A stretch of DNA of 32,000 bases from Mesoplasma florum L1 (GTDB lineage: Bacteria; Bacillota_I; Bacilli_A; Mycoplasmatales; Mycoplasmataceae): NCBI RefSeq assembly GCF_000008305.1, contig NC_006055.1, forward strand, positions 480,001 through 512,000, read 5' to 3'. Each line of letters opens with the position of its first letter. The first letter of the stretch is position 1. This document shows positions 17,367 to 31,436 of this stretch, piece after piece. The notes below the pieces were generated by a model. The model was given only the letters and a program-made list of their open reading frames with translations, made no database searches and had not been told where the DNA came from. A program made the position numbers and the translations under genes.

Positions 17367-18116
17367 TTAAAGTTTTATTATTACTTTTGTAAATAAATAA
17401 TTAAGAACTACAGATCTCATAGATAAATATATATCTTCTCTATTATGTTCATATATTAAAATTTCTGCTTTAAATTCTTGAAATTTATGACTTTGAGATG
17501 ATGAAGTTACAATTACAATATTTTTTGTTTTATTTTTAACTAAATTATAATAGTTTACTAAGTATTGATTATCTAATCCAAATGCAAAGAATATACATAA
17601 ATCGTCTTCTTTACAATAATCTATTCAAATAGGATTCATTTTTCTTTGTGAATTAAAGTTTGAATCAATACCTTTATATTGCAATTGACTTGCAAAGATT
17701 TCAACATTAAAGTTCTGTTCATAAGAACTAAATAAAAATGTTCTTCCACATTCTTTTAACAAACTTACCAACAAACTTATTTCATCTTCTTGGACATCAA
17801 TTTGTTTTATATTTTGAACAACTTGATTAAATAAGGTAGATGGCTTGGCAGAAAGTTTTTGCTTTTCAAAATCTTTGTAATATTCTCTTTCAACTTTTAT
17901 TCTAATAGCTATTTCTCTAAAACCGTTATAACCATATTTTTTAGAAAATGATGTTAACGCTGATTCAGAAATAAAACATACTTCAGAGCATTCTTTACTA
18001 GTTGGGGTTTTATTTTCTTCCAAACAATCAAGTAAATATTTAGCAATTAATTTATGTGTATTACTCTCGTTGTTATTATAAATAACAGTTAACTTTTCTT
18101 TTATACTTTGAAACAT
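17367..18116 (-). CDS. RpiR/MurR-family transcriptional regulator (HTH + SIS-like)
   Basis: HTH region ...SKECSEVCFISESALTSFSKKYGYNGFREIAIRIKVE... I translated through TGA 17625 to the TAA at 17367. ATG 18116 has GGGAGA 7 nt upstream; the alternative ATG at 18143 lacks an SD. Confidence 0.85.
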
Positions 18117-18235
18117 ATTTTTTCTCCCAAAAGTACTTCTCATAAATTTAAGTACTTCTTTATAAATATACTACATGTAAAATTAATAGCAAAATTTTTA
18201 TATAAAATAAGTGTAGAAAAAAGAGGATTATAAAA

Positions 18236-19594
18236 ATGTTAAAATTTCCTAAAAATTTTCACATCGGTGCTTCAATGAGTGCTATGCAAACAGAAGGAAA
18301 AGGAATTACTGAAATAGGTGATTTAACTTTTGATGCATATTTCAAAGAAAATCCGGAATTGTTTTACCATGGTGTTGGGCCAGATCTGACAAGTGATATT
18401 ACAAGACACTATAAAGATGATATTGAAAAATTTAAATACATCGGATTAGATTCAGTTAGAACAGGTTTTTCTTGAGCTAGATTATTTCCAGATGGTATTA
18501 ATCTAAACAAAGAAGCAGTAAAGTTCTATCATGACTATATCGATGAGTATTTAAAAAATGATATTGAAATTATTATGACTTTATTTCACTTTGACATGCC
18601 TTTATGAGCACATGAATTAGGTGGTTGAGAGAGCAGAGAAGTTATTGAAAAATTTATAAGTTATTGTGAATTTGTATTCAAGGAATATGGATCAAAAATA
18701 AATTATTTTGTTACCTTCAATGAACCACTTGTTCCTGTATTTGAAGGATATGTAGGTAAAATGCACTATCCCGCAAAGGATAGTCCCAAAGAAGCTGTAG
18801 CTCAAGCATATGGAATTTTCCTAGCTCATGCTAAAGCAGTAAAGTTATTTAAAGAATTAAAAATTGATTCAAAAATAGGAGTTGTTTATAACTGAAACTT
18901 TACATTCCCATTTTCAGATTCAGCAGAAGATAAAATTTCAGCTGAAATCTATGATGCTTATGTAAATAGAGGACCATTAAACATTATGTATAATGGAAAT
19001 ATTAACCCAATTATTATAAAAACCTTAGAAGAATATAACATAACTCCATTTCACACAAGCGAAGAAATTGAAATAATTAAACAAACTGAAATTGATTTTT
19101 TAGGAGTTAATTATTATTTCCCTTGTAGAGTTAAAACAAATGAAAATGTAAAAAATAGATGAGCTTTAGATCAAATGCATATTGAAATTCCTGCAGATGC
19201 AAAAATTAATCCTTTTAGAGGGTGAGAAATTTATCCTGAAGGGCTATATGATATATCTATAGCAATTAAAAAAGAGTTAAATAACATTCCATGATACATT
19301 GCTGAAAATGGTATGGGTGTTGAAAATGAAGATAGATTTAGAAATGAAAATGGACAAATAGATGATGATTACAGAATTGAGTTTTTAGAAACTCATATGT
19401 CTGAATTAAAAAGAGGTTTAGATGCTGGATCAAATTGTTTTGGTTACCACATTTGAGCTGCCATTGACTGCTGAAGCTTTAGAAATGCTTATAAAAATAG
19501 ATATGGTTTAATTGAAGTTGATTTAAAAGACCAATCTAGAAAGTTTAAAAAATCAGCTTACTGATATAAAGAACTAATAGAAAATAAGGAGTAA
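18236..19594 (+). CDS. GH1 6-phospho-beta-glucosidase (locus 1)
   Basis: GH1 motifs: VTFNEPLV (acid/base Glu) and YIAENGMG (nucleophile Glu). Multiple TGA codons fall at Trp positions. The stop is at 19592-19594. It lies immediately upstream of a PTS EIIBC gene. Confidence 0.92.
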
Positions 19595-19597
19595 ACT

Positions 19598-21229
19598 ATG
19601 GCTACAAAAAGTCAAATATACAAAAATGTTGAAAAATTATTTTTAAGTCTTGGTGGACATGAAAATATTCAATATTTCACTCACTGTATGACTAGAATGC
19701 GTTTTCATTTGCATGATTGAGATAAAGCAAATGAAAATGAAATTAAAGATGGTGGTTATGCTGTTGGTGTTAACAAAAATAAAAGCAACGGTGAATTCCA
19801 AGTTATTATAGGTCCTGAAGTTGAAAGTTTTTACAATGCTTTTTGCGAAGTTAATGGATATGATGAAGATGGAAAAACATTAATTGTTAAAAATGATAAA
19901 CCAAATTTAACAGAGAAACAAAATAAAGAAATTGTTGATATGAAAAATAGATTTAGAGTTAAAGGTTCATTTAACAAAGCCCTTTCTTTTATCTCAAAAG
20001 TTTTTGCCCCAATAGTTATACCTCTTGTAGGTTATGGATTGATTTTGACAATCGCATCATTGATAACTGTTGAATGAAGTGGATCAGATAGTAGTTTAGC
20101 TGCTAATTCACATTTTTTTAAAGAGTTTTCTGGAATACTTTCAATTCTTGTTAATTCATTTTCATTGTTTGTTACAGTTGCTGTAGGTTATACAACAGCT
20201 AAAGCATTAAGATGTAATGGAATTTATGGAATTATAATTGCACTTGTTTTAACATCACCAGGATTAATAAATATGGGAGATGTTAAACCAGCTGATGGTC
20301 AAAGTATTTTAGGAGCTTATGACGGATGAACATTATTTGGAGATGGAGTTAAATATCCATGAAAAATAAACTTCAATGGATTAATTATTCCAATGATAGT
20401 TGTTGTTTCATTTGGTGCATTCTTAGAAATACAAACTAATAAAATTAAACAAAGTACATTAAAAATGATTATTCAACCAATTGCTATTATTGGTGGAGGT
20501 TTCTTATTTGGAGTATTCATAGTAGCACCTGTTGGGTTACTATTCACAAACTACTTATCAATTGGTATAAATTGATTAAGTACAAATAGTATTGCTAAAT
20601 ATATTGCTATACCTGTTGTTGGAGGATTATATGGCCCTTTAGTTATAACTGGTTTACACCACTCATTAACTCCAATTATTTTACAAGGTCAAGCAATTTA
20701 TGGAGCCACATTGATTCAAGGTTTCTGTACTATTTCAAACGTTTCACAAGGGGTTGCTTCAATTGCATTCGTTGTGTTACACAGAAGAGTTTCAAAAATG
20801 AAAGATATTGGAGTTTCAAACGGGGTTTCTGCCATTGTTGGAGGAATCACAGAACCATCATTATATACAATAAACTTAAAACATTTATTCCCACTAATCG
20901 GATGTTCAATAGGTACATTCTTTGGAACAATGATTATGGTTGCTTCTAATTCATATGCATTGCAAGGGGCTTCTTCAATTTTCGGAATACTTATGTTCTT
21001 ACAACAAGCACCTGAAAAAACTGGAGCTACAACTTGAATTGGTGGAGGATACTTATGAGGTACAATCTCAGTATTAACTTCATGTATAATAACTTTTGTT
21101 GCAACTTATTCTTTAGGTAAAACTAAATACTTCTGAAATAGATCAAGAGAAATCTTATTAAATGATTTCCATGAAGATATTAATGAATTAAAACTTTTAC
21201 CAAAAACTAAAAAAGCGAAAAGAGCTTAA
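19598..21229 (+). CDS. PTS beta-glucoside-family transporter EIIBC (no EIIA domain)
   Basis: AAGGAG sits 6 nt upstream of ATG 19598. The EIIB motif is THCMTRMRF, followed by a multi-TM EIIC with GITEPSLY. All track fragments share one frame, and the stop is at 21227-21229. Confidence 0.9.
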
Positions 21230-21264: not shown

Positions 21265-22704
21265 TTATAAATATTCTGCTTTCATTTCTCCAAGTATACT
21301 TGATAATCCTTTTTGTACTTTATTAAAGAATTGTTGATTAATAACATTAATTGATTTTTTTATTCTTGATGAGTTTCTTTCTAAACTATCAGCCACTTTA
21401 TCAAGATCTTCTAATTCTTTTTGCATTTTTTTATACGCTGTTGGGAATTGAATCGTTCAATATTCATTTAATTCAGCTTTTTGTTTTTCTAATTCTTTTA
21501 GTAATTCATTATCAGAAGCTTTAGTAACTGTTTTAATTTTTTGATTATATTCATTTTCAAATTCAACTAGTCTTCTTACGATTTGACCGACAAATACAAA
21601 ACTTTCTGAATCAGTTATTCAAATGTTTTCATATTCATCACTTCTCATAAAAGGTATTCCTGGGTATTTATCATTAAAACTTGTTGCAATTAAAATTCCA
21701 TATTTAGTGTTATTACTTGCAGCGTCAGTTGATAATTTAGGAATTCAAGTATTACTTCATTCCGCATTCTTAACTTCATAAACAATTTTTCCAATTTCTT
21801 CACGTTTATGATTTTTAATAGTTTGTAAGTAATCTGCTTTCTTTTCACCAGTTGTTATTTTTTCAATACCATCAAACAATGAAAACGCTTTAACTAAATC
21901 TTCATACACTTCATGTTCAAAGTTTTCACCTTTTCGTTTTGAATTAATAATTTTAAATTCACGGTTAGCTTGCACTAAATCAGCTATTCTTTTATCATAA
22001 TCATTTATTAAAGTTAATTCTTTAGTTTTTGATTCAGCTTCTTTTTGAATAGCAAAGTTTTCTAATTCAATTTTTTTATTATTTAACTCTAGTTTTAAAT
22101 TATTTATTTCTTGACTAAATTGATTAATTAAAACTTCTTTATTTTTTTCAATCTCAAGATTTAGTTTTTGATCCAAAGCTTTAATTTCAACTTCTTTATT
22201 TGCAAGTTTAATCTCTAATGAATTTTTAACATCATTAAACTCATTTAATAAATTACTTTTTGCTTCATTCAATTCTGCAATCTTTTGTTGATTTAATTGA
22301 TCAATCATATTTTGTTGTTTTTGAATGTTCAATTCATATGTTTTAATTTTTTCATTAAACTCATTAATAACAGCATTTCTTTCTTTATCTATTTCTAATG
22401 CCTTTTGTTCATTTAATTTATTAATTAAATTATCTTTTTCATTAATTGAAATATTTAAGCTTTCTAATTGTTTATTAAAGTTATTTAGCATTTCTTGTTT
22501 AACTAAACTAATTTCAGCAATCTGTTTATCATTCATTTGTGCTATTAATTCATTTTTAAGTTGCACTCGAATTTCATTCTCTTGCTTTTGTTTTAATTCA
22601 CTTAAATAGTTTTCAATAACTGTTCAGTTTGAATTATGATTCTTAAAAGAATCTTTTGTGATTTCTTCGCCACATTTGGGGCAACGAAAAAGTATATCGC
22701 TCAT
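21265..22704 (-). CDS. DUF2130-like protein: N-terminal CxxC ribbon, long coiled coil, C-terminal PD-(D/E)xK-like module
   Basis: AGGAGG RBS, ATG at 22704. N-terminus MSDILFRCPKCGEEITKD. Four 40-aa coiled-coil repeats. C-terminus ...GENFEHEVYEDL...KKADYLQ...GKIVYEVKNAEW...GILIATS... (a D...ExK arrangement). All in frame with ORF 21757..22566. Confidence 0.8.
22012..22491 (-). repeat. four tandem degenerate 120-bp (40-aa) coding repeats in the coiled coil
   Basis: The units start MLNNFNKQ.., VINEFNEK.., LLNEFNDV.., LINQFSQE.. at an exact 40-residue period. A fifth partial unit begins LINDYDKR. Confidence 0.75.
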
Positions 22705-22892
22705 GGATATATCCTCCTTTATTTAATATTTCTTTGTTTTATTTTTAGAGTCTAGAATAAGCACAGACTGTCAACTTTGGCTCACTTTCTTTATCATTCT
22801 AAGGTATAAAACTTACCTACTTTTATATTACTATTTTAATTTTTAAAATAATGTTATTTTTATATTGTCATTATTTATTTTTTGGTTAAAAT

Positions 22893-22918
22893 AGAAAAAA
22901 ATAAGCCTAAGCTTATTT
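22893..22918 (-). terminator. rho-independent terminator after the HU-fold gene
   Basis: AAATAAGC-CTAA-GCTTATTT hairpin followed by a T-run on the minus strand. It overlaps the stop codon at 22913-22915. Confidence 0.6.
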
Positions 22919-23728
22919 TTGTTCCTCTTCAATTGTTATCGTTTCAATTGTTTTTTTATTATATTTAATTCCAGTTCATTTTGTATCTGACATAATTAAT
23001 TTTAAATTACGTGAAGGTTTAAATTTAATTATTGTTGTTGCGGGAACTTCTACAATTTCTCCATTTGATGGATTAATTGCTTGTTTTACCGGCTTTTCAA
23101 CTTTAATTAATTTTCCAAAGTTTTCAATTATAACTTCTTCTCCACTTATTAAATGATTTTCAACATTTTGAAATAAATTTTTAACAATTTCATCAATAGT
23201 TTTCTTTTTATAATCAGGATACATTTCTGTAAGTCTTTCAACTAAATATTTTTTTGATACCTTATCATAACTAGTTTTCTTAATTAATTTATCTTCTCTA
23301 ATAACTTTTTCTTTAATAATTAATAATGAACTTTTATTTTTTTGAACTATAGTTTCATTTGTTTTTATTGTTTGTTTTTTAAATCAAAACTGTAAAACAA
23401 GTATAGTTAACAAAATTATTAGGATAATCACATACATTCAATTTATAAATGCATCTAAAAATATAGGAGTTAAGAAAGTTGAATCAACATATAGTTTAGA
23501 TTGAAACATAGAATAAAAACCAATAGGACCTTGTAAAAAATGATTAGTATTTTCAAATCATTTAGATACAACTTGTGAGTTAAATCCAGATGAAATTACC
23601 TCACTTCATTCTTGATTTCCATTATAAACATTATTTAATAATTTAAAAATGATCAATAAAGTAGTAAAAAGAATAATCAATAGAAAAATAATTGATATTT
23701 TAAGATTATTTTTATTAATTAATTTCAT
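22913..23728 (-). CDS. membrane-tethered HU/IHF-fold protein (2 TM + C-terminal HU-like domain, 271 aa)
   Basis: The whole frame was checked triplet by triplet and has no TAA/TAG, with 5 TGA. TM1 is ISIIFLLIILFTTLLIIF and TM2 is MYVIILIILLTILVLQFWF. The HU-like domain follows: VSKKYLVERLTEMYPDYKKKTIDEIVKNLFQNVENHLISGEEVIIENFGKLIKVEKPVKQAINPSNGEIVEVPATTIIKFKPSRNLK. Confidence 0.8.
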
Positions 23729-23731
23729 ATC

Positions 23732-26700
23732 TTAATTCTCATCTTTCTTTTTCTTTTTAATAAATATAGCTGCTATAGCAATTGCAACTATATTAAGTGC
23801 TGCTAGAATTCATAGTAATATACTTATTGTATTATTTCTTGTATTAATAGTAGTATTGTTTTTAATGAAGTCAAAGTTAGCTTGACCAATATACATTTTT
23901 GAATTATCTATTGGTTTAATAACTACTTTTGCACTATCTCCATCAATTACTACTTCTGTAATAACTTGATTTCATACAATATCGCTATTTTGTTCTTTAA
24001 TTATAGAAATTATTCCTGCTTCATTAAACTTATTTTTTGGAATTGAGTCAATAGAAACATTTATTATTAAATTTAAATCTTGTATTGGAGAAACCTTAAC
24101 TTCTAATTTACCAGAATACAAACTTGTTTCTTCTTTACCTTCAACAATTAAATTTCCACTTTCGTTTTTACTTATTTTTGTTTCTGATCAATTAATAACA
24201 GTATTTTGGTATTGTAATTTTAATGCATCTTCAAGTTTATTAATATTATCTATATCCTCTTGATTAACAAAAATACCATCTTTAAATTCTGCTTTATGCT
24301 CAGCTATATCGTATTGTAAATAGTATTTAGCATCAATTGAACCTTTATAATTTTCAGAATCATCATTTGCTACAATTTTAAAGTTAAATCTATCAATTAG
24401 TTCAATATGTAAATCTTCATATTTAATATCAGAATTTTTAATTTCTGCTTTTGACTGTTCCATTATTTGATTTTTTAAATTGATTATCAATTCTTCATTA
24501 GTATTACCATCAATATTTCATGCATCAACTTTTTTAATGTCTAAAGGTTTTATATTCAATGTTGATAAATCTTTTCTTGCTGGTTTTACATCAACCTCTA
24601 TAAATTGATTGTCTTGGGTTACTCCAACAAAGTCAGATCCAATTATTTCAGACTTTAAAGATGTTATTTTATATTTTAATGAATAAGAACTAACACGTTC
24701 AAATGATATATAAGACGAATCAACATTAGTTCAATGTTTTTGATTTTGTAAATAACTCATAATATCATAAGTATTCGTATCCTCATAAAAAATAAAGTCC
24801 TTAAATAAATCAGTTTCATTAAGATTCAATATTTTTGGAACATTAATTTCTTTATTATTTTGAAGAAGTTTTGAATCATCTGTTGCGGTTAAAGTAATTT
24901 TACCTTCTTTTTCTAATGTTGAATTATTGATTTTAAAGTTAAAATCTTGCTCTGTAACACTACTTAATCCTGTTATTAATTTTAATCTTCTTAATATTTC
25001 ATTTTTGTCAGTTAAATTTGATGAATCAGCAATTTTAAAGTCTTTTAAATTATATTTCAATTGCTCAATTGTGAATGTATTAAAATTGCTAACATTAATT
25101 GATACCGGTTTAGCTTTTACAACTATGTACCCTTCTTCTCCAACTTTTGCACTTTTTACTCTTTCAATATCAATATCATCAGCATTGATTTCAACTTTAA
25201 CAATTGGTTGATTAAGGTTCTCTTTAATTAATTCATTTATTGTTTGAATAATTTCTGCGTCAGAAGTTGTATTAGAAAGTGGTTTTTTGTTAAAATCTAA
25301 TTTTGATAAATCAATTGCATTAGTTGCAGGTAGAATAATAGTTTGTTCACCTTTTATTTGCAAAGCTGATTCTTTTGCTTTTACAGATATTGATCCGTTC
25401 TTACCAATGGCTGGATTAGCTATTTTTAATTCTTCTAACTGATTTTCTACTAGATCAGTTGTTAATTGACTTTTACCATTTATAGATTGAGCTACTATTG
25501 TGTTTACAATTTTGGTTCTATCAGTATCTTCATTAGTAAATTTAGTTTTTGAAATATCATAAACTAAATGAGGTATTAAAATTTTTTGTTGATTCATAAC
25601 AAGCTTAGAAGATGGATTAGCTTCTATTTGTATTTCACCATCTTTTTCATATGTTGATGGTTGAATTTTTATTGTTACATCTTCATTTGTTATTTTTGTT
25701 TCTGTAACTTTTGATAATGAAGCCAAAATTTCGGTATCTTTTATTTCATTTGATGGATTGATTTTACCTTCAATTGAATTTTCTGCATTAGCTAAATCAA
25801 TTTTGGCGCTATCGGTTGGTCTCAATTTAAGAATTGAAGTAATGACATTATTAGGTTGTTTTTCTTCATCAAAAAATTGAACATATAAATCATACCCTTC
25901 TCTATCATGTTCATCAGGTGTTTTTATTTCTCAATATTGTTCATCATCAGAAATTTTATTATAAATAACACCATTCTCAACTGGTGTTTCAGTTCCTTCA
26001 TGAACTAATAAAACTTTTGTTATATATGATTTAGCTGTTAATTTTAATAAATTATTAGATTTTGTGACATCATTTCAAATATAAACTTCACCTTTTGATC
26101 CTAAACTTCAATCTAATGAATTTGCTCCTATTAAATTAGATGATCTAAGAGTTTCTTGAAATTTATCGTTAAACACTCTATTAACTTGAGCTCTATCTGT
26201 TGTTGGTTTGTTTTTGGCAGTCACAGTTTTATATGTTTCATCTGCTTGGTACATAACACCATAATCAAACATACCACTATATCTTGGCAAACCGTCCTCA
26301 TATCGAACTGTTAAATTAGGGTTCAATTTAGTACCATCAATAATATACTTTGATGCAGAATATGAGTTCGATTTAACAATAGTTTTTGAATCATAGATAA
26401 CATATTTAGTTATTCGGTTAACTCATTGAACATCTCTGATATATCCATCTCCATCACTAGGATATGAAACTTCATCATTGCTTCTATCAATATATAAAGT
26501 TTTAGCAGTCTTTTTAATTTCACCTGATTCATGAGCTTCAAAATTAGTATTTTTACTTTCTGATAAACCTATATACATGCCTTCTGTATCAACAAAAATA
26601 TTATAGGCTTGTAATTGTTTATATTTTTCAATATTTGCTATAACTTCAACTTGATTTTCTGTTTTTTCTTCTCTATAAATAGAAACCTCTCCATCAACCA

Positions 26701-27511
26701 TAAAATATGTATTACTTGAATTATCTTCAATAGATACAATTGGATAATTTCCATAATTACTTGTTCCAGATGCTAAAGTAATTTCTTCTGATTTATTGAT
26801 GTAAATTTTATTAATTTGTCAATCTTTTCCATTATCATCTAACGTAGAATAAATTAAAGAATTATCAAATGAATTATATTTTACACTTTTAATAGATCTA
26901 TTGTAAACTTCAAGTTGAACTTGTTCAGATCCTGTTATTGGTTTTGGTTTAGGCGCAGATGGAAGTAAAAGTTGCCCAACTCCGCCAAGTATTCCACCAA
27001 CTCCACCAAGTATTCCACCAACTCCACCAATTATGCCACCAAGTCCACCAACTAAACCATAATTACTTGGTTGATCATTTAATCATTCAAATTTATATAT
27101 TTTAGAGTCATCAAAATAATAAGATATTTTATCATCTCCATAGAATATTGTTTTTCCTGAAACATCAAGTGGTGTTGTATTCTTATTAGTGCCTGCTTTG
27201 TAGACGTAGGCAACTTCTTTTGTTGGACCACTCATTTGTGAGTTCATTTTAGTTTTTGATAAACCTTGTACTTTTACTTTCTTATTATTTGGATCTGTAT
27301 AATTTCCTGTTCATGTAGTAATGCCATCTTTTTGATCAAAATAGGATTGTCTTACTTTTGTGCCAAATGTTAAAGCTGCTCTATTCATTGCCTCATACTC
27401 TAATATTTCATAATTTTTATTTGAATTGATTGAAAAATTAGCCAATTCAACAATATTAAATGAACCTTGACCAATAGTCAAAGCCGTTAAAAATGATAAT
27501 AAAAACTTCAT
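23732..27511 (-). CDS. large surface protein (1259 aa): signal peptide, Gly-zipper segment, repeated surface modules, C-terminal TM anchor
   Basis: Five track ORFs share one frame, and I checked all gaps for TAA/TAG and found none. N-terminus MKFLLSFLTALTIGQGS. Gly-zipper LVGGLGGIIGGVGGILGGVGGILGGVG. Repeated modules end ...E(K/E)(D/E)GxIx(I/V)xA. C-terminus ISILLWILAALNIVAIAIAAIFIKKKKKDEN. Confidence 0.85.
26971..27058 (-). repeat. 21-bp tandem coding repeat (GGxGGIx heptads)
   Basis: Two identical 21-mers, CCAAGTATTCCACCAACTCCA, sit at 26985-27005 and 27006-27026. A 17/21 copy follows at 27027-27047, with partial copies on both flanks. Confidence 0.85.
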
Positions 27512-27551: not shown

Positions 27552-27580
27552 ATTTTAACAATTAAAATTAATAAAGTCAA
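27552..27580 (-). promoter_or_regulatory. putative promoter of the surface-protein operon
   Basis: On the minus strand: TTGACT (27580-27575), 17 nt spacer, TAAAAT (27557-27552). This is about 40 nt upstream of ATG 27511, which has an AAGGGG RBS. Confidence 0.55.
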
Positions 27581-27596
27581 ATATATATATTTGTAA

Positions 27597-27620
27597 CAAA
27601 ACAAAAAACCCGTAAGGGTT

Positions 27621-27622
<2 letters not shown>
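27597..27622 (-). terminator. rho-independent terminator after GH1 gene 2
   Basis: AAAACCC-GTAA-GGGTTTT hairpin overlapping the stop codon, followed by a T-rich tract on the minus strand. Confidence 0.7.
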
Positions 27623-29046
<1,424 letters not shown>

Positions 29047-29063
<17 letters not shown>

Positions 29064-30591
29064 TTTTATTACCTTTAAATTTAAATATACTTTTTTGTTT
29101 TAATTCAGGAGTAAATCCGTATTCATCAAAAAGTATTTTATTTGTTCTTTCTTTAAAATATTTAACTTGACTTAAAACTATTGTCATAAATATTGTTATT
29201 GATATTCCCAAAATTACACTTAGTGTTCCTCAAACAATTGAACCACCAGCTCATTGTTCTACATTTATGCCTTGTGGTATAGTTGAAGCAAAACCGATTA
29301 TTCCTAAAATACCAAAAGGTGCTGCATTTGTTCAAACTCCAGCTGAAGTATACAATAAGCATCCAAAATATGTTCCTATAGCAGAAGCTATTAAAGGGAA
29401 AAGATATTTTAAAGAAATTGAATAAATAGCAGGCTCAGTTACTCCTGCGATAAATGCAGAAATACCATTAGAATATGCAATATTTTTTACTTCTTTACAG
29501 TTTTTGTTTAATCTTCCAAATGTTAAACAACCTACAGCTAAACAAATGTTAGAAATGATCATTAACCCCATTATAAAACTACCGTTAAATTTTAATATAT
29601 CTTGCATTAATATAGGTGTTATTGTTCTATGTAATCCAAATACTACCATTGGTGCATATAGCATTCCTATTAATGGTGAGAATATATATTTTGTTATATT
29701 ATGTGTCATTAAAAAGTTAAATGATATAGACATATAATTTGTTATTATTAATCCTGCTGGAGCAATTGTAAACATAGTTACAATAACTGTTCCAGCAATA
29801 ACAACCATTGGTTGAATAAGCATTCTAGCTCCACCTAAATTAACTTTATTCATCCCTCTTTCAATGAAAACTCCTAGTAAACCAACAAAAATCATCGGTA
29901 TTACTAAACCTTCAAATGAAACTTTTCATGGGAAAACAGCGTTTCCAAATATTTTTCAACCATGTTCATTCATTGCTTGTATTATTGTTTTACCACCATC
30001 AAGATCAAGTGCTGAAAGAGGTGTTAACATTGGACTAATAAGAATTGCGCCAATTGCTAAACCTATAATTGGTGTCCCTCCCATTACTCTAAATGTACTT
30101 CAACAAACTGCCATAACAATAAATCAACTTAATCCTTTTGAAATTAATTCCATAAAACTATTAATTTCAATTAATGTTGGAATTTCTGTTGAATTAGAAG
30201 ATAAGAAGAAAGGCGTTCTTACCATTTCTCACATTCCGTATACAACAAGCAAAATCATTATTGGGCTAAAAATTGATGAAACAAACATAATAAAAGTCAT
30301 TTTTTGTTTTTTAGTTTTTAACTCATCATTTGCGTTTTCATTTATTCCAGTTGTTTTTAAAAACATTTTATAAAAACTTTCAATTTCTGTTCCTATAACA
30401 ACTTGATATTCACCACCAACAATTAAAACACCTTTACATCATTTTTGCTTTTTGATTTCCTCAGTGTTAGCTTTTGTAATATCTACAAGTTTAAATCTCA
30501 TTCTAGAAATACAGTGACTTATTTTTTCAATATTTTCAGATCCACCAACATTTTCTAAAAGAAATACAATATTTTCTTTTGTAAATTTCAT
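29047..30591 (-). CDS. PTS beta-glucoside-family transporter EIIBC (locus 2, no EIIA)
   Basis: AAGGAG RBS, ATG at 30591. EIIB motif SHCISRMRF, EIIC with GVTEPAIY. The stop at 29047 overlaps the GH1 start by 17 nt. Confidence 0.9.
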
Positions 30592-30650
30592 AAAATTCTC
30601 CTTTGTATATATTTCAACTCATTTTTTATAAAAATGCTAAAGTAAAATAA

Positions 30651-30691
30651 AATACTAAACTAGTTTGTTTTCTAAAAACTAGTTTAGTATT
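30651..30691. repeat. perfect 16-bp inverted repeat (terminator or operator)
   Basis: AATACTAAACTAGTTT (30651-30666), 9 nt loop, AAACTAGTTTAGTATT (30676-30691). It overlaps the stop of rpiR-like gene 2 and lies about 60 nt upstream of the PTS start. Confidence 0.8.
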
Positions 30692-31436
30692 CTGTTGTCA
30701 TTAATAATTCCTCTAATAATTTAAATAAGTTTATTAATCAAAAATTTCTGTCAACATAATTTCTTTGACAAAGCTTATTATCAAAATACATAGCTTTAGT
30801 ATTATCATCATCAAATTTTCAGTTCGTTGAACAAATTATATAAACTTTAGAACCAATACTTGTTAAGTATTCATAAATTAATTTTAAACTTCCATTATCT
30901 CTTCCGGTTAAAATCAATAAAACAAGTTTCTTTTCTCATTCTATTTTTTTCAATTTATTTAAATCTTTTTCTAAATTAAAAATATTGGCTTGATAATCAT
31001 GTTTTTCTAAAACATCAATCAAAAAAGTTGATGCATATTGTGTTTGAAAACTTGGAAATAAAAATACTTCTTCTTTTTTCTTTATATCATTAGCAAACTC
31101 TATTAAAAAATCATAATTTTCTGAAATTCATTTTTCAAATGAAACATAATATTCTCTAACAGTTAAGTGTTTCGAGTAATTTGCATTTTTTTCTGTGAAA
31201 TTATTTTCATATTCAATTTTCAATCTAACTTGCAACTCACGAAATCCTGTGCATTCAGCTATTTTAGCAAATTGTGTAATTGTTGATTTACTTACAAAAC
31301 ATTTTTTAGCTAACTCATCTTGTGTTCTAAATAAACCTTTTGAAAAATCTTTAAGTATTTGTTGAGCAATTTGTTTAAAAGTTGTCTCTCTATTATCTCT
31401 ACTTAAATTGTCAACTTTTTTGTATATTGAATTCAT
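30684..31436 (-). CDS. RpiR/MurR-family transcriptional regulator (locus 2)
   Basis: HTH ...QDELAKKCFVSKSTITQFAKIAECTGFRELQVRLKIE... I translated through TGA 31128 to the TAA at 30684. Confidence 0.85.

Follow-up and report, generated by a model that had tools for sequence, protein, structure and literature searches.

What does a complete HU/IHF fold do at the end of a protein that appears to begin in the membrane? The question is raised by mfl428, a reverse-strand gene in a 32,000-nucleotide stretch of the Mesoplasma florum L1 genome (L1 positions 480,001-512,000, hereafter the window), which is very AT-rich (about 22-30% GC). The original prediction, made from the letters of this stretch, described an HU/IHF-fold domain tethered to the membrane by two N-terminal transmembrane (TM) helices. 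This observation was confirmed, and a membrane-anchored cytoplasmic HU domain, taken as an architecture alone, was considered highly probable. Chromosome positioning and segregation in wall-less, genome-reduced bacteria are poorly understood, and M. florum is a leading chassis for minimal-genome design.

Reading frame and domain architecture of mfl428

Translation with genetic code 4 (TGA = Trp) gave a single 271-aa open reading frame (ORF) plus stop, which was an exact match to mfl428 of M. florum L1 (genome 502,913-503,728). In the table-11 ORF list the same region is broken by five in-frame TGA codons (residues 41, 57, 97, 115 and 251) into ORFs of 82 aa and 40 aa; four of these five positions (W41, W57, W97 and W251) are invariant Trp in orthologs. 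The ORF is intact, at 271-277 aa, in M. florum, M. tabanidae and M. entomophilum, and the protein of another M. florum strain, which NCBI names 'HU family DNA-binding protein', differs by one residue. Hydrophobicity maxima are Kyte-Doolittle (KD) values over 19 residues. The AlphaFold2 (AF2) model was built as a monomer on a 10-sequence family alignment, with confidence reported as the predicted local distance difference test (pLDDT). Synonymous (dS) and nonsynonymous (dN) divergence was calculated for M. florum versus M. entomophilum. The coding sequence (CDS) and the parts of its product are listed below, where module A denotes the two TM helices with their loop.

22913..23728, minus strand: mfl428 CDS, membrane-anchored HU-family protein as predicted (table-4 translation)
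23699..23728, minus strand: residues 1-10, K-rich N-terminus, predicted cytoplasmic (3 K, 0 D/E; charge count)
23636..23698, minus strand: residues 11-31, TM helix 1 (TM1; KD maximum 2.98; AF2 helix 6-36, pLDDT about 80)
23441..23635, minus strand: residues 32-96, predicted extracellular loop of module A (12-sequence alignment A2)
23381..23440, minus strand: residues 97-116, TM helix 2 (TM2), beginning at the invariant W97 (KD maximum 2.77; AF2 helix 87-126)
23258..23380, minus strand: residues 117-157, basic linker, predicted cytoplasmic (12 K/R, 5 D/E)
22997..23257, minus strand: residues 158-244, HU/IHF (DNABII) domain (PF00216, PDB sequence matches, AF2, Foldseek)
22916..22996, minus strand: residues 245-271, C-terminal tail IMSDTKWTGIKYNKKTIETITIEEEQK (alignment; dN = 0, dS 0.33)

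The C-terminal domain matched PF00216 with 74.7 bits (gathering score 22.4; E 7e-21) over profile positions 2-87 of 90, and its best PDB sequence matches were the HU entries 5l8z (Spiroplasma melliferum HU) and 5ogu (E about 1e-12). The HU fold was modeled confidently over residues 155-248 (pLDDT about 87-94), with helices at 159-169 and 175-194, strands at 199-238 and a C-terminal helix at 240-248. A Foldseek comparison of the model with the PDB returned HU and IHF structures with target-normalized template-modeling scores of 0.78-0.87, the top match being a Spiroplasma HU. The profile search and the confident fold bear out the HU/IHF identity that had been proposed for this segment; its start lies near residue 158, not at residue 170 as had been suggested. 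Among NCBIfam models, the IHF subunits scored higher (about 42 bits) than HU, yet far below their cut-offs (111-115 bits), and the HU-beta equivalog score was likewise far under its cut-off.

By Bacillus HU numbering, mfl428 keeps K3, K18, F47, P63 (P220), F79, K80, a basic residue at 83 and K86. F47 and F79 are core residues, and N219-P220 align to N62-P63, which places the intercalating Pro at the arm tip. The basic arm positions R55, R58 and R61 are occupied by K212, K215 and I218. The earlier statement that the arm keeps the Pro of its NP motif was therefore upheld, while the accompanying statement that the conserved Arg residues are lost stood only in part: two of the three are replaced conservatively by Lys, and the R61 position alone is non-basic. 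That loss had been taken as a sign of a degenerate binder, a view weakened by the canonical 90-aa HU of M. florum, which also has Ile at position 61 (GINPSTG). Because the canonical protein shares it, the Ile need not signal degeneration, and the missing Arg61 is, as far as these alignments go, a lineage trait. Other members of the mfl428 family have K or R at this position.

Directly before the HU fold lies the family motif KK.Y.(Q/K)VSK, within a highly conserved part of the linker (residues 134-157). The K-rich linker after TM2 had been described correctly in kind, but it measures about 41 aa and not about 55; AF2 confidence is low over residues 120-151 (pLDDT < 50). The 27-aa tail IMSDTKWTGIKYNKKTIETITIEEEQK is identical across three species, AF2 confidence being low at residues 250-271, and its M-S-x-x-K-W-T-G motif is common to the paralogs linked to gidA.

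The two TM helices behind a K-rich N-terminus, and the loop of about 65 aa between them, were found as originally described. The loop is net acidic (2 K/R vs 5 D/E), with low AF2 confidence. In all 14 of the two-TM family members examined the N-terminus is net positive (3-11 K/R vs 0-2 D/E), and the 20 residues past TM2 of mfl428 hold 5 K/R vs 1 D/E. By the positive-inside rule, a positive N-terminus followed by two TM helices puts the C-terminal HU domain in the cytoplasm, in agreement with the original prediction of a cytoplasmic, membrane-held fold. Evolutionary rates point the same way:

Housekeeping neighbors: dS 0.31-0.40, dN/dS 0.06-0.09
mfl428 residues 134-271: dS 0.30, dN/dS 0.18
mfl428 residues 1-116: dS 0.96, dN/dS 0.29
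mfl428 loop, residues 32-96: dS 0.89, dN/dS 0.27
Surface protein mfl429, encoded upstream: dS 0.81, dN/dS 0.46

The switch in rate sits just past TM2, so that the membrane and outside part of mfl428 evolves, on these comparisons, like a surface protein and the HU part like a cytoplasmic protein. This is an argument for a cytoplasmic HU domain that is independent of charge, and from the two together we infer that the domain faces inward. Unusual synonymous conservation of the C-terminal half, as from an overlapping RNA element or gene conversion, was considered and rejected, since its dS of 0.30 equals the housekeeping baseline and the fast parts are the N-terminal half and mfl429.

The mfl428 family and its relation to known proteins

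The family is Entomoplasmataceae-specific: a profile search over 1.84 billion representatives, combined with sequence inspection, has so far placed it in Mesoplasma, Entomoplasma and '[Acholeplasma] multilocale' alone. Its constant part is module A, which is joined to differing cytoplasmic parts. The module consists of a K-rich N-terminus, TM1 ending in ..FK.(L/I)N, a loop W..(I)..WF..GP.G..S and (L)P(I/V)(F/L).D..INW leading into TM2, a pattern that mfl428 follows throughout. Positions invariant in alignment A2 are N32, W41, W57-F58, G67-P68-x-G70, S73, P88, D92 and W97, and mfl428 has 12 of the 12 invariant columns. No Pfam family covers the module, which is unannotated, is defined here and recurs beside surface-protein genes. 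The HU version of the family is marked by a family-specific KK.Y.QVSK extension and often an MS..KWTG tail. The other cytoplasmic part, 'module C' (..RAKLDGS..ELQKHAN..NLRDMTKKEL..), had no Pfam or PHROG match, and in some paralogs it follows a coiled coil with no HU domain. Its variant consensus, ..R(A/S)K(L/I/T)DGS..ELQK(H/Y)(A/S)N..NLR(D/N)(M/L)TKKEL.., occurred in module-A proteins on either side of HU or where HU is lacking, including those of loci L003 (8001-9347) and L005 (8001-9203) in M. florum strain CP023736 and mfl456 of L1.

Searches differed in yield. The module-A alignment gave 8000 candidates in a large database, none of them significant, and low-complexity TM words appear to swamp the word index. 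A scan of the genome collection with a 6-sequence alignment returned one locus, in M. grammopterae (L010). The HU-module alignment retrieved mostly canonical HUs from the database and missed known full-length members, although it found P0158, a short M. grammopterae ORF considered below.

M. florum L1 encodes three membrane-anchored HU paralogs (mfl428, mfl456 and mfl670) in addition to the canonical 90-aa HU. Keyword matches in the tables of Baby et al. gave only the three paralogs, which would have left the species without a canonical HU; this was rejected, as the 90-aa HU is present in the proteome table of Matteau et al. The product of mfl456 combines a module A variant, module C and an HU domain whose arm lacks N-P. 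That of mfl670 consists of module A, about 190 residues of histone-H1-like AKKP/VEE repeats (AKKPVAKKPAAKKVEE) and HU; compared up to about residue 400, it shares with mfl428 40% identity in module A (E 1e-22) and 44% in the HU part. mfl670 and its orthologs resemble mfl428 in module A, in the KK.Y.QVSKK HU subtype, in the MS..KWTG tail and in predicted topology. They differ in that mfl670 has a linker of about 190 aa, its own promoter and transcription start site (TSS), about 25-fold greater abundance and conserved gidA-bmp synteny, whereas the linker of mfl428 spans 41 aa and its gene forms a pair with that of a surface protein. The gene gidA (mnmG) directly adjoins mfl670 or its orthologs in at least four species (M. 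florum, M. coleopterae, M. corruscae and M. grammopterae), and the family copy of '[A.] multilocale' lies between gidA and gidB. mfl670 is the main, abundant family member, and mfl428 is a low-copy, dispensable, strain-variable accessory paralog. The importance of mfl428 itself is accordingly limited; the family, especially mfl670, carries most of the interest for chromosome-membrane attachment.

Annotations across the family were inconsistent. mfl670 (L1 genome 778,357-779,682, outside the window and about 14 kb from dnaA) and its orthologs have been called only 'low-complexity acidic protein', 'Histone protein' or 'HU family DNA-binding protein', and the mfl670 sequence carries the CDD label 'RhaT'. 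'30S ribosomal protein S6' or 'SSU ribosomal protein S6p' are names of the family members P0009, P0155 and P0156 and of mfl428 (RAST) in UniRef, RAST or GenBank; the S6 naming is probably an artefact of the low-complexity K/E linker. The present assignment corrects both the S6 and the 'low-complexity acidic protein' names.

Canonical HU (S. melliferum HU 5L8Z and the 90-aa HU of M. florum) shares with mfl428 the fold, a full-length domain match and K3, K18, F47, P63, F79, K80 and K86, and the M. florum protein also shares the lineage-specific Ile at position 61. mfl428 nonetheless departs from the canonical profile of a soluble, abundant protein of about 90-100 aa. At 271 aa it is three times longer; it adds the two-TM module, a basic KK.Y.KVSK extension and the conserved 27-aa tail; it has Lys at R55 and R58 and Val at R53; and it is of very low abundance (about 21 molecules per cell), non-essential and strain-variable. 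The earlier remark that small soluble dimers are the norm for HU/IHF proteins leaves out the membrane-tethered HUs that had already been predicted in print (PMC5499826). [quoted passage not shown] The likeness to mfl428 lies in a predicted cytoplasmic HU at the membrane, with N-terminal TM helices in the halobacterial proteins, all of these being predictions. Bacteroidetes HU-CCDC81 differs in having an N-terminal HU, one C-terminal TM helix and extracellular peptidoglycan-binding SPOR/LysM domains, whereas mfl428 has its own two-TM module with N-terminal TM helices, no peptidoglycan-binding domain and a wall-less host; the HU-CCDC81 profiles (PF18174/PF18175) gave no mfl428 match even at E up to 10.

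In Bacillus, noc lies within a gidA-gidB-noc-soj-spo0J cluster; mfl670, as the main member of the mfl428 family, also adjoins gidA. Noc (Bacillus subtilis) and Rv3852 (M. tuberculosis) are described as DNA-binding proteins that bind to the membrane or insert in it, by which DNA is brought to the cell periphery. The membrane contact is made through an amphipathic helix in Noc and through a C-terminal TM helix in Rv3852, and neither has a sequence relation to mfl428, so the analogy is functional only; mfl428 had no ParB/Noc match in Pfam or NCBIfam and no H-NS-like domain. ToxR and CadC carry an N-terminal OmpR-type winged helix, a single TM helix and a C-terminal periplasmic sensor, whereas mfl428 has no winged helix-turn-helix, the reversed order and two TM helices.

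Three proteins of walled, standard-code bacteria (P0041, P0063 and P0083) also have two N-terminal hydrophobic helices, an acidic or low-complexity linker and HU domains. Their N-termini are unrelated, their loops are 14-28 aa long, they carry two or three HU domains, and context and organisms differ; they appear from these sequences to be independent fusions. On metagenome contigs, TM-HU genes with two or three tandem HU domains (L012, 6001-7410; L013, 6001-7545) had GGDEF, lspA, PelG and CotH as neighbors. Kamashev et al. noted the long N-termini of Mollicute HUs and did not analyze them, and the literature search found no paper describing the Mollicute membrane-anchored HU family of mfl428. 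Predicted membrane-anchored HUs in other lineages are thus already known, and what is new is the lineage-specific membrane module of the Mollicute family. Decades-old reports of DNA-membrane association in mycoplasmas, cited in PMC8637272, came with no molecular explanation.

Proposed mechanism and competing explanations

On the proposed mechanism, mfl428 would be integral to the membrane, with N- and C-terminus both cytoplasmic and two TM helices around a small conserved extracellular loop. The basic linker of about 40 residues would set the complete HU/IHF fold just below the membrane. HU folds are obligate intertwined dimers, and for this reason the working unit would most likely be a dimer with four TM helices, whose two beta-arms, having retained the intercalating Pro and carrying Lys in place of two of the three Arg residues, would bind and bend DNA. 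The DNA segment so held against the membrane would make mfl428 a DNA- or nucleoid-membrane tether. Dimerization, DNA binding and tethering are suggested by the conserved fold and contact residues, and the full mechanism, a cytoplasmic, DNA-binding and membrane-tethering HU, was given about even chances. By the same reasoning mfl428, mfl456 and mfl670 would be concrete candidates for DNA-membrane tethers, and they are testable as such because they are genetically dispensable, each of the three genes tolerating transposon insertion. Protein abundances bearing on this were taken from Matteau et al. (2020):

mfl428: about 21 molecules per cell, 1 validated peptide
mfl429: about 34 molecules per cell, 16 validated peptides
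mfl456: about 9 molecules per cell, 4 validated peptides
mfl670: about 522 molecules per cell, 33 validated peptides
DnaA: about 82 molecules per cell, 5 validated peptides

In Dataset EV6 of that study the domain and sequence columns are out of register with the gene rows (the mfl428 sequence stands in the mfl461 row and that of mfl670 in the mfl111 row). Sequences were identified by content, and abundances were read from the gene rows, with those columns assumed to be in register.

Several results weigh against a tethering role. About 21 mfl428 molecules per cell, from a single validated peptide, are too few for a global structural role, and the RNA-seq value for mfl428 is zero in three of six replicates as listed (Matteau et al., 2020). 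Baby et al. (2018) class the gene as non-core and non-essential and list no homolog of it in JCVI-syn3.0; the same holds for mfl429, mfl456 and mfl670. Three family members (P0040, P0042 and P0056) have module A without an HU domain. Within mfl428, the R61 position is Ile and R53 is Val, and the AF2 model is a monomer in which loop, linker and tail have low confidence.

The main rival to the tether takes module A as the functional core, for example a membrane partner, anchor or assembly factor of large surface proteins, with an interchangeable cytoplasmic head that is HU in mfl428 and a coiled coil plus module C in paralogs. The mfl428 head may serve protein-protein contacts, or connect the gene or mRNA of the surface protein with its insertion site, without organizing the nucleoid. 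All four non-gidA-linked module-A genes examined adjoin large signal-peptide proteins of unrelated families (Spiralin-domain, DUF285 and unclassified). Module A evolves as fast as mfl429 and its extracellular loop holds invariant residues, paralogs without HU exist, mfl428 and mfl429 are similarly low in copy number, and Burroughs et al. argue that some membrane-anchored HU domains moved to protein binding (PMC5499826). We consider this explanation rather unlikely, as the most abundant and most widely syntenic members, mfl670 and its orthologs, adjoin gidA and not a surface-protein gene and carry AKKP repeats of a DNA-binding type; the mfl428 HU domain keeps the intercalating Pro and most basic contact positions under strong purifying selection; and adjacency to surface genes could reflect common residence in variable genomic islands. 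A membrane-bound transcription regulator in the manner of ToxR or CadC was also weighed. Here the loop, alone or with mfl429, would sense a signal and the IHF-like domain would bind specific sites, for example at its own operon or at the sugar-uptake cassettes that flank the locus. A conserved outside loop joined to a cytoplasmic domain of DNA-binding type would suit such a sensor, so low a copy number would be expected of a regulator more readily than of a structural protein, the IHF models outscore those for HU, and the locus lies between two RpiR/PTS/glycosidase cassettes. The IHF score of about 42 bits is, however, far from the cut-offs of 111-115 bits, membrane-integrated one-component sensors are not known among HU/IHF-family proteins, a candidate binding site was not identified, and the neighbors outside the mfl429-mfl428-mfl427 block differ by species, which leaves a regulator quite improbable.

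The data that count against a global role would also suit an accessory paralog in decay that now does little or nothing in M. florum L1: mfl428 is a non-core and non-essential gene that syn3.0 lacks, it yielded one validated peptide at about 21 molecules per cell and zero RNA-seq reads in three of six replicates, and a truncated remnant occupies the syntenic site in M. grammopterae. Decay is nonetheless very improbable given that the ORF of 271-277 aa has stayed intact in three species despite a dS of 0.3-0.96, that dN/dS is 0.18 in the cytoplasmic half and 0.29 in the membrane half with dN = 0 in the tail, and that the protein was seen by mass spectrometry. A soluble HU-like product of about 103 aa, made only from the internal start that the original prediction had pointed out, is hardly credible. 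The in-frame ATG does exist (23222-23224, Met169), but it lies past HU helix 1 (159-169 in AF2), so a product from there would lack part of the dimerization body. Upstream of it, 168 codons are free of TAA and TAG (P about 1e-6 by chance at 21% GC), the first 157 codons form an open frame on which purifying selection acts (dN/dS 0.29), the N-terminal module is homologous to that of every family member, and the TSS list of Matteau et al. (2020) has none inside or directly upstream of mfl428. The lone short HU-only ORF that was found, P0158 of M. grammopterae, might seem to favor such a product; it starts within HU helix 2 behind a non-homologous leader and is, judging from its sequence, a deletion remnant. 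The remnant (111 aa; L011, 6001-6336; NCBI label MULTISPECIES) lies at the syntenic site, where deletion has removed the surface-protein gene together with the 5' 60% of the TM-HU gene, yet the 27-aa tail retains 100% identity. Extracellular DNA matrices are known to contain DNABII proteins, and ComEA is a membrane-anchored DNA receptor, which invites an HU domain that faces outward and binds extracellular DNA, either as a ComEA-like uptake receptor or as a binder of biofilm DNA. Such an orientation is equally hard to credit, as two TM helices behind a K-rich N-terminus put the C-terminus on the N-terminal side, inside in 14 of 14 members examined, and as the HU half is slow like cytoplasmic proteins while the loop is fast like a surface protein.

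The tether is kept as the preferred reading of mfl428, with one extension. Because module A keeps pace with mfl429, the two proteins may act together at the cell surface. In the widest form of this idea, mfl670, mfl456 and mfl428 would constitute the physical chromosome-membrane attachment system of these wall-less bacteria, of the kind envisaged by the classical replicon model, with mfl428 as a specialised member whose loop, together with mfl429, would link surface events to the DNA-bound HU dimer. This form is distinctly unlikely; if true, an HU fold would be the DNA-side output of a transmembrane connection.

Operon, neighboring genes and transcription

mfl428 is the second gene of a two-gene unit with mfl429, which is bracketed by terminators at 27605-27622 and 22901-22915. 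The remaining features of the locus were as follows.

23732..27511, minus strand: mfl429, 1259-aa surface protein, upstream co-transcribed gene
22886..22939, minus strand: intrinsic terminator over the mfl428 stop codon (Matteau et al. 2020 list, genome 502886-502939, peg.430)
27605..27622, minus strand: terminator of the upstream gene mfl430 (in-house scan; Matteau 2020 list, genome 507593-507643)
27552..27580, minus strand: best promoter-like site of the mfl429-mfl428 unit, TTGACT-17-TAAAAT with extended -10 TG (consensus scan)
21265-22704, minus strand: mfl427, core gene, DUF2130 (E 2e-51)

The mfl428 terminator forms a stem-loop UAAGC-UUAG-GCUUA at 22901-22915 followed by a U-run, and fell under the GC-pair threshold of the in-house scan. 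The promoter-like site is a pattern match only, total matches being equal to the shuffle expectation, and Matteau et al. (2020) list no motif-associated TSS for mfl429. In M. florum as in M. entomophilum, the mfl429 stop and the mfl428 start are separated by 3 nt, and a weak Shine-Dalgarno-like GA(T/G)GAG(G)A lies inside the end of mfl429; the short gap and this element suggest that mfl428 is made by translational coupling with mfl429.

Raw counts over the six replicates (Matteau 2020 Dataset EV5) were 0, 0, 730, 1, 0 and 1027 for mfl428 and 6767, 6804, 9260, 6846, 14 and 3025 for mfl429. The all-or-none counts of mfl428 could reflect a counting artefact, culture heterogeneity or ON/OFF switching.

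The order mfl429-mfl428-mfl427 is kept in M. entomophilum. M. florum, M. grammopterae and M. entomophilum all have mfl427 in a syntenic place downstream of the TM-HU gene; from mfl428 it is set apart by the terminator and a gap of 208 nt. Neighbors beyond this block vary among species. In the window, the locus lies between two inverted cassettes of RpiR, phosphotransferase system (PTS) EIIBC and GH1 glycosidase genes (17367-21229 and 27621-31436). A recent inverted duplication of these cassettes was rejected, since they are old paralogs with 26-36% protein identity and no long DNA repeats. A defence-system or phage origin of mfl428 was likewise rejected, there being no PADLOC match and only a generic HU PHROG.

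Among the neighbors themselves, mfl427 combines a zinc-ribbon-like CPKCGEE motif in its N-terminal part with about 200 residues of coiled coil. The N-terminus of mfl429 is signal-like, its Spiralin domain covers residues 819-889, and its C-terminal TM anchor precedes KKKKKDEN. At about residues 152-180 mfl429 carries a glycine-zipper-like hydrophobic repeat (GLVGGLGGIIGGVGGILGGVGGILGGVG), and M. entomophilum has a hydrophobic segment at the corresponding position.

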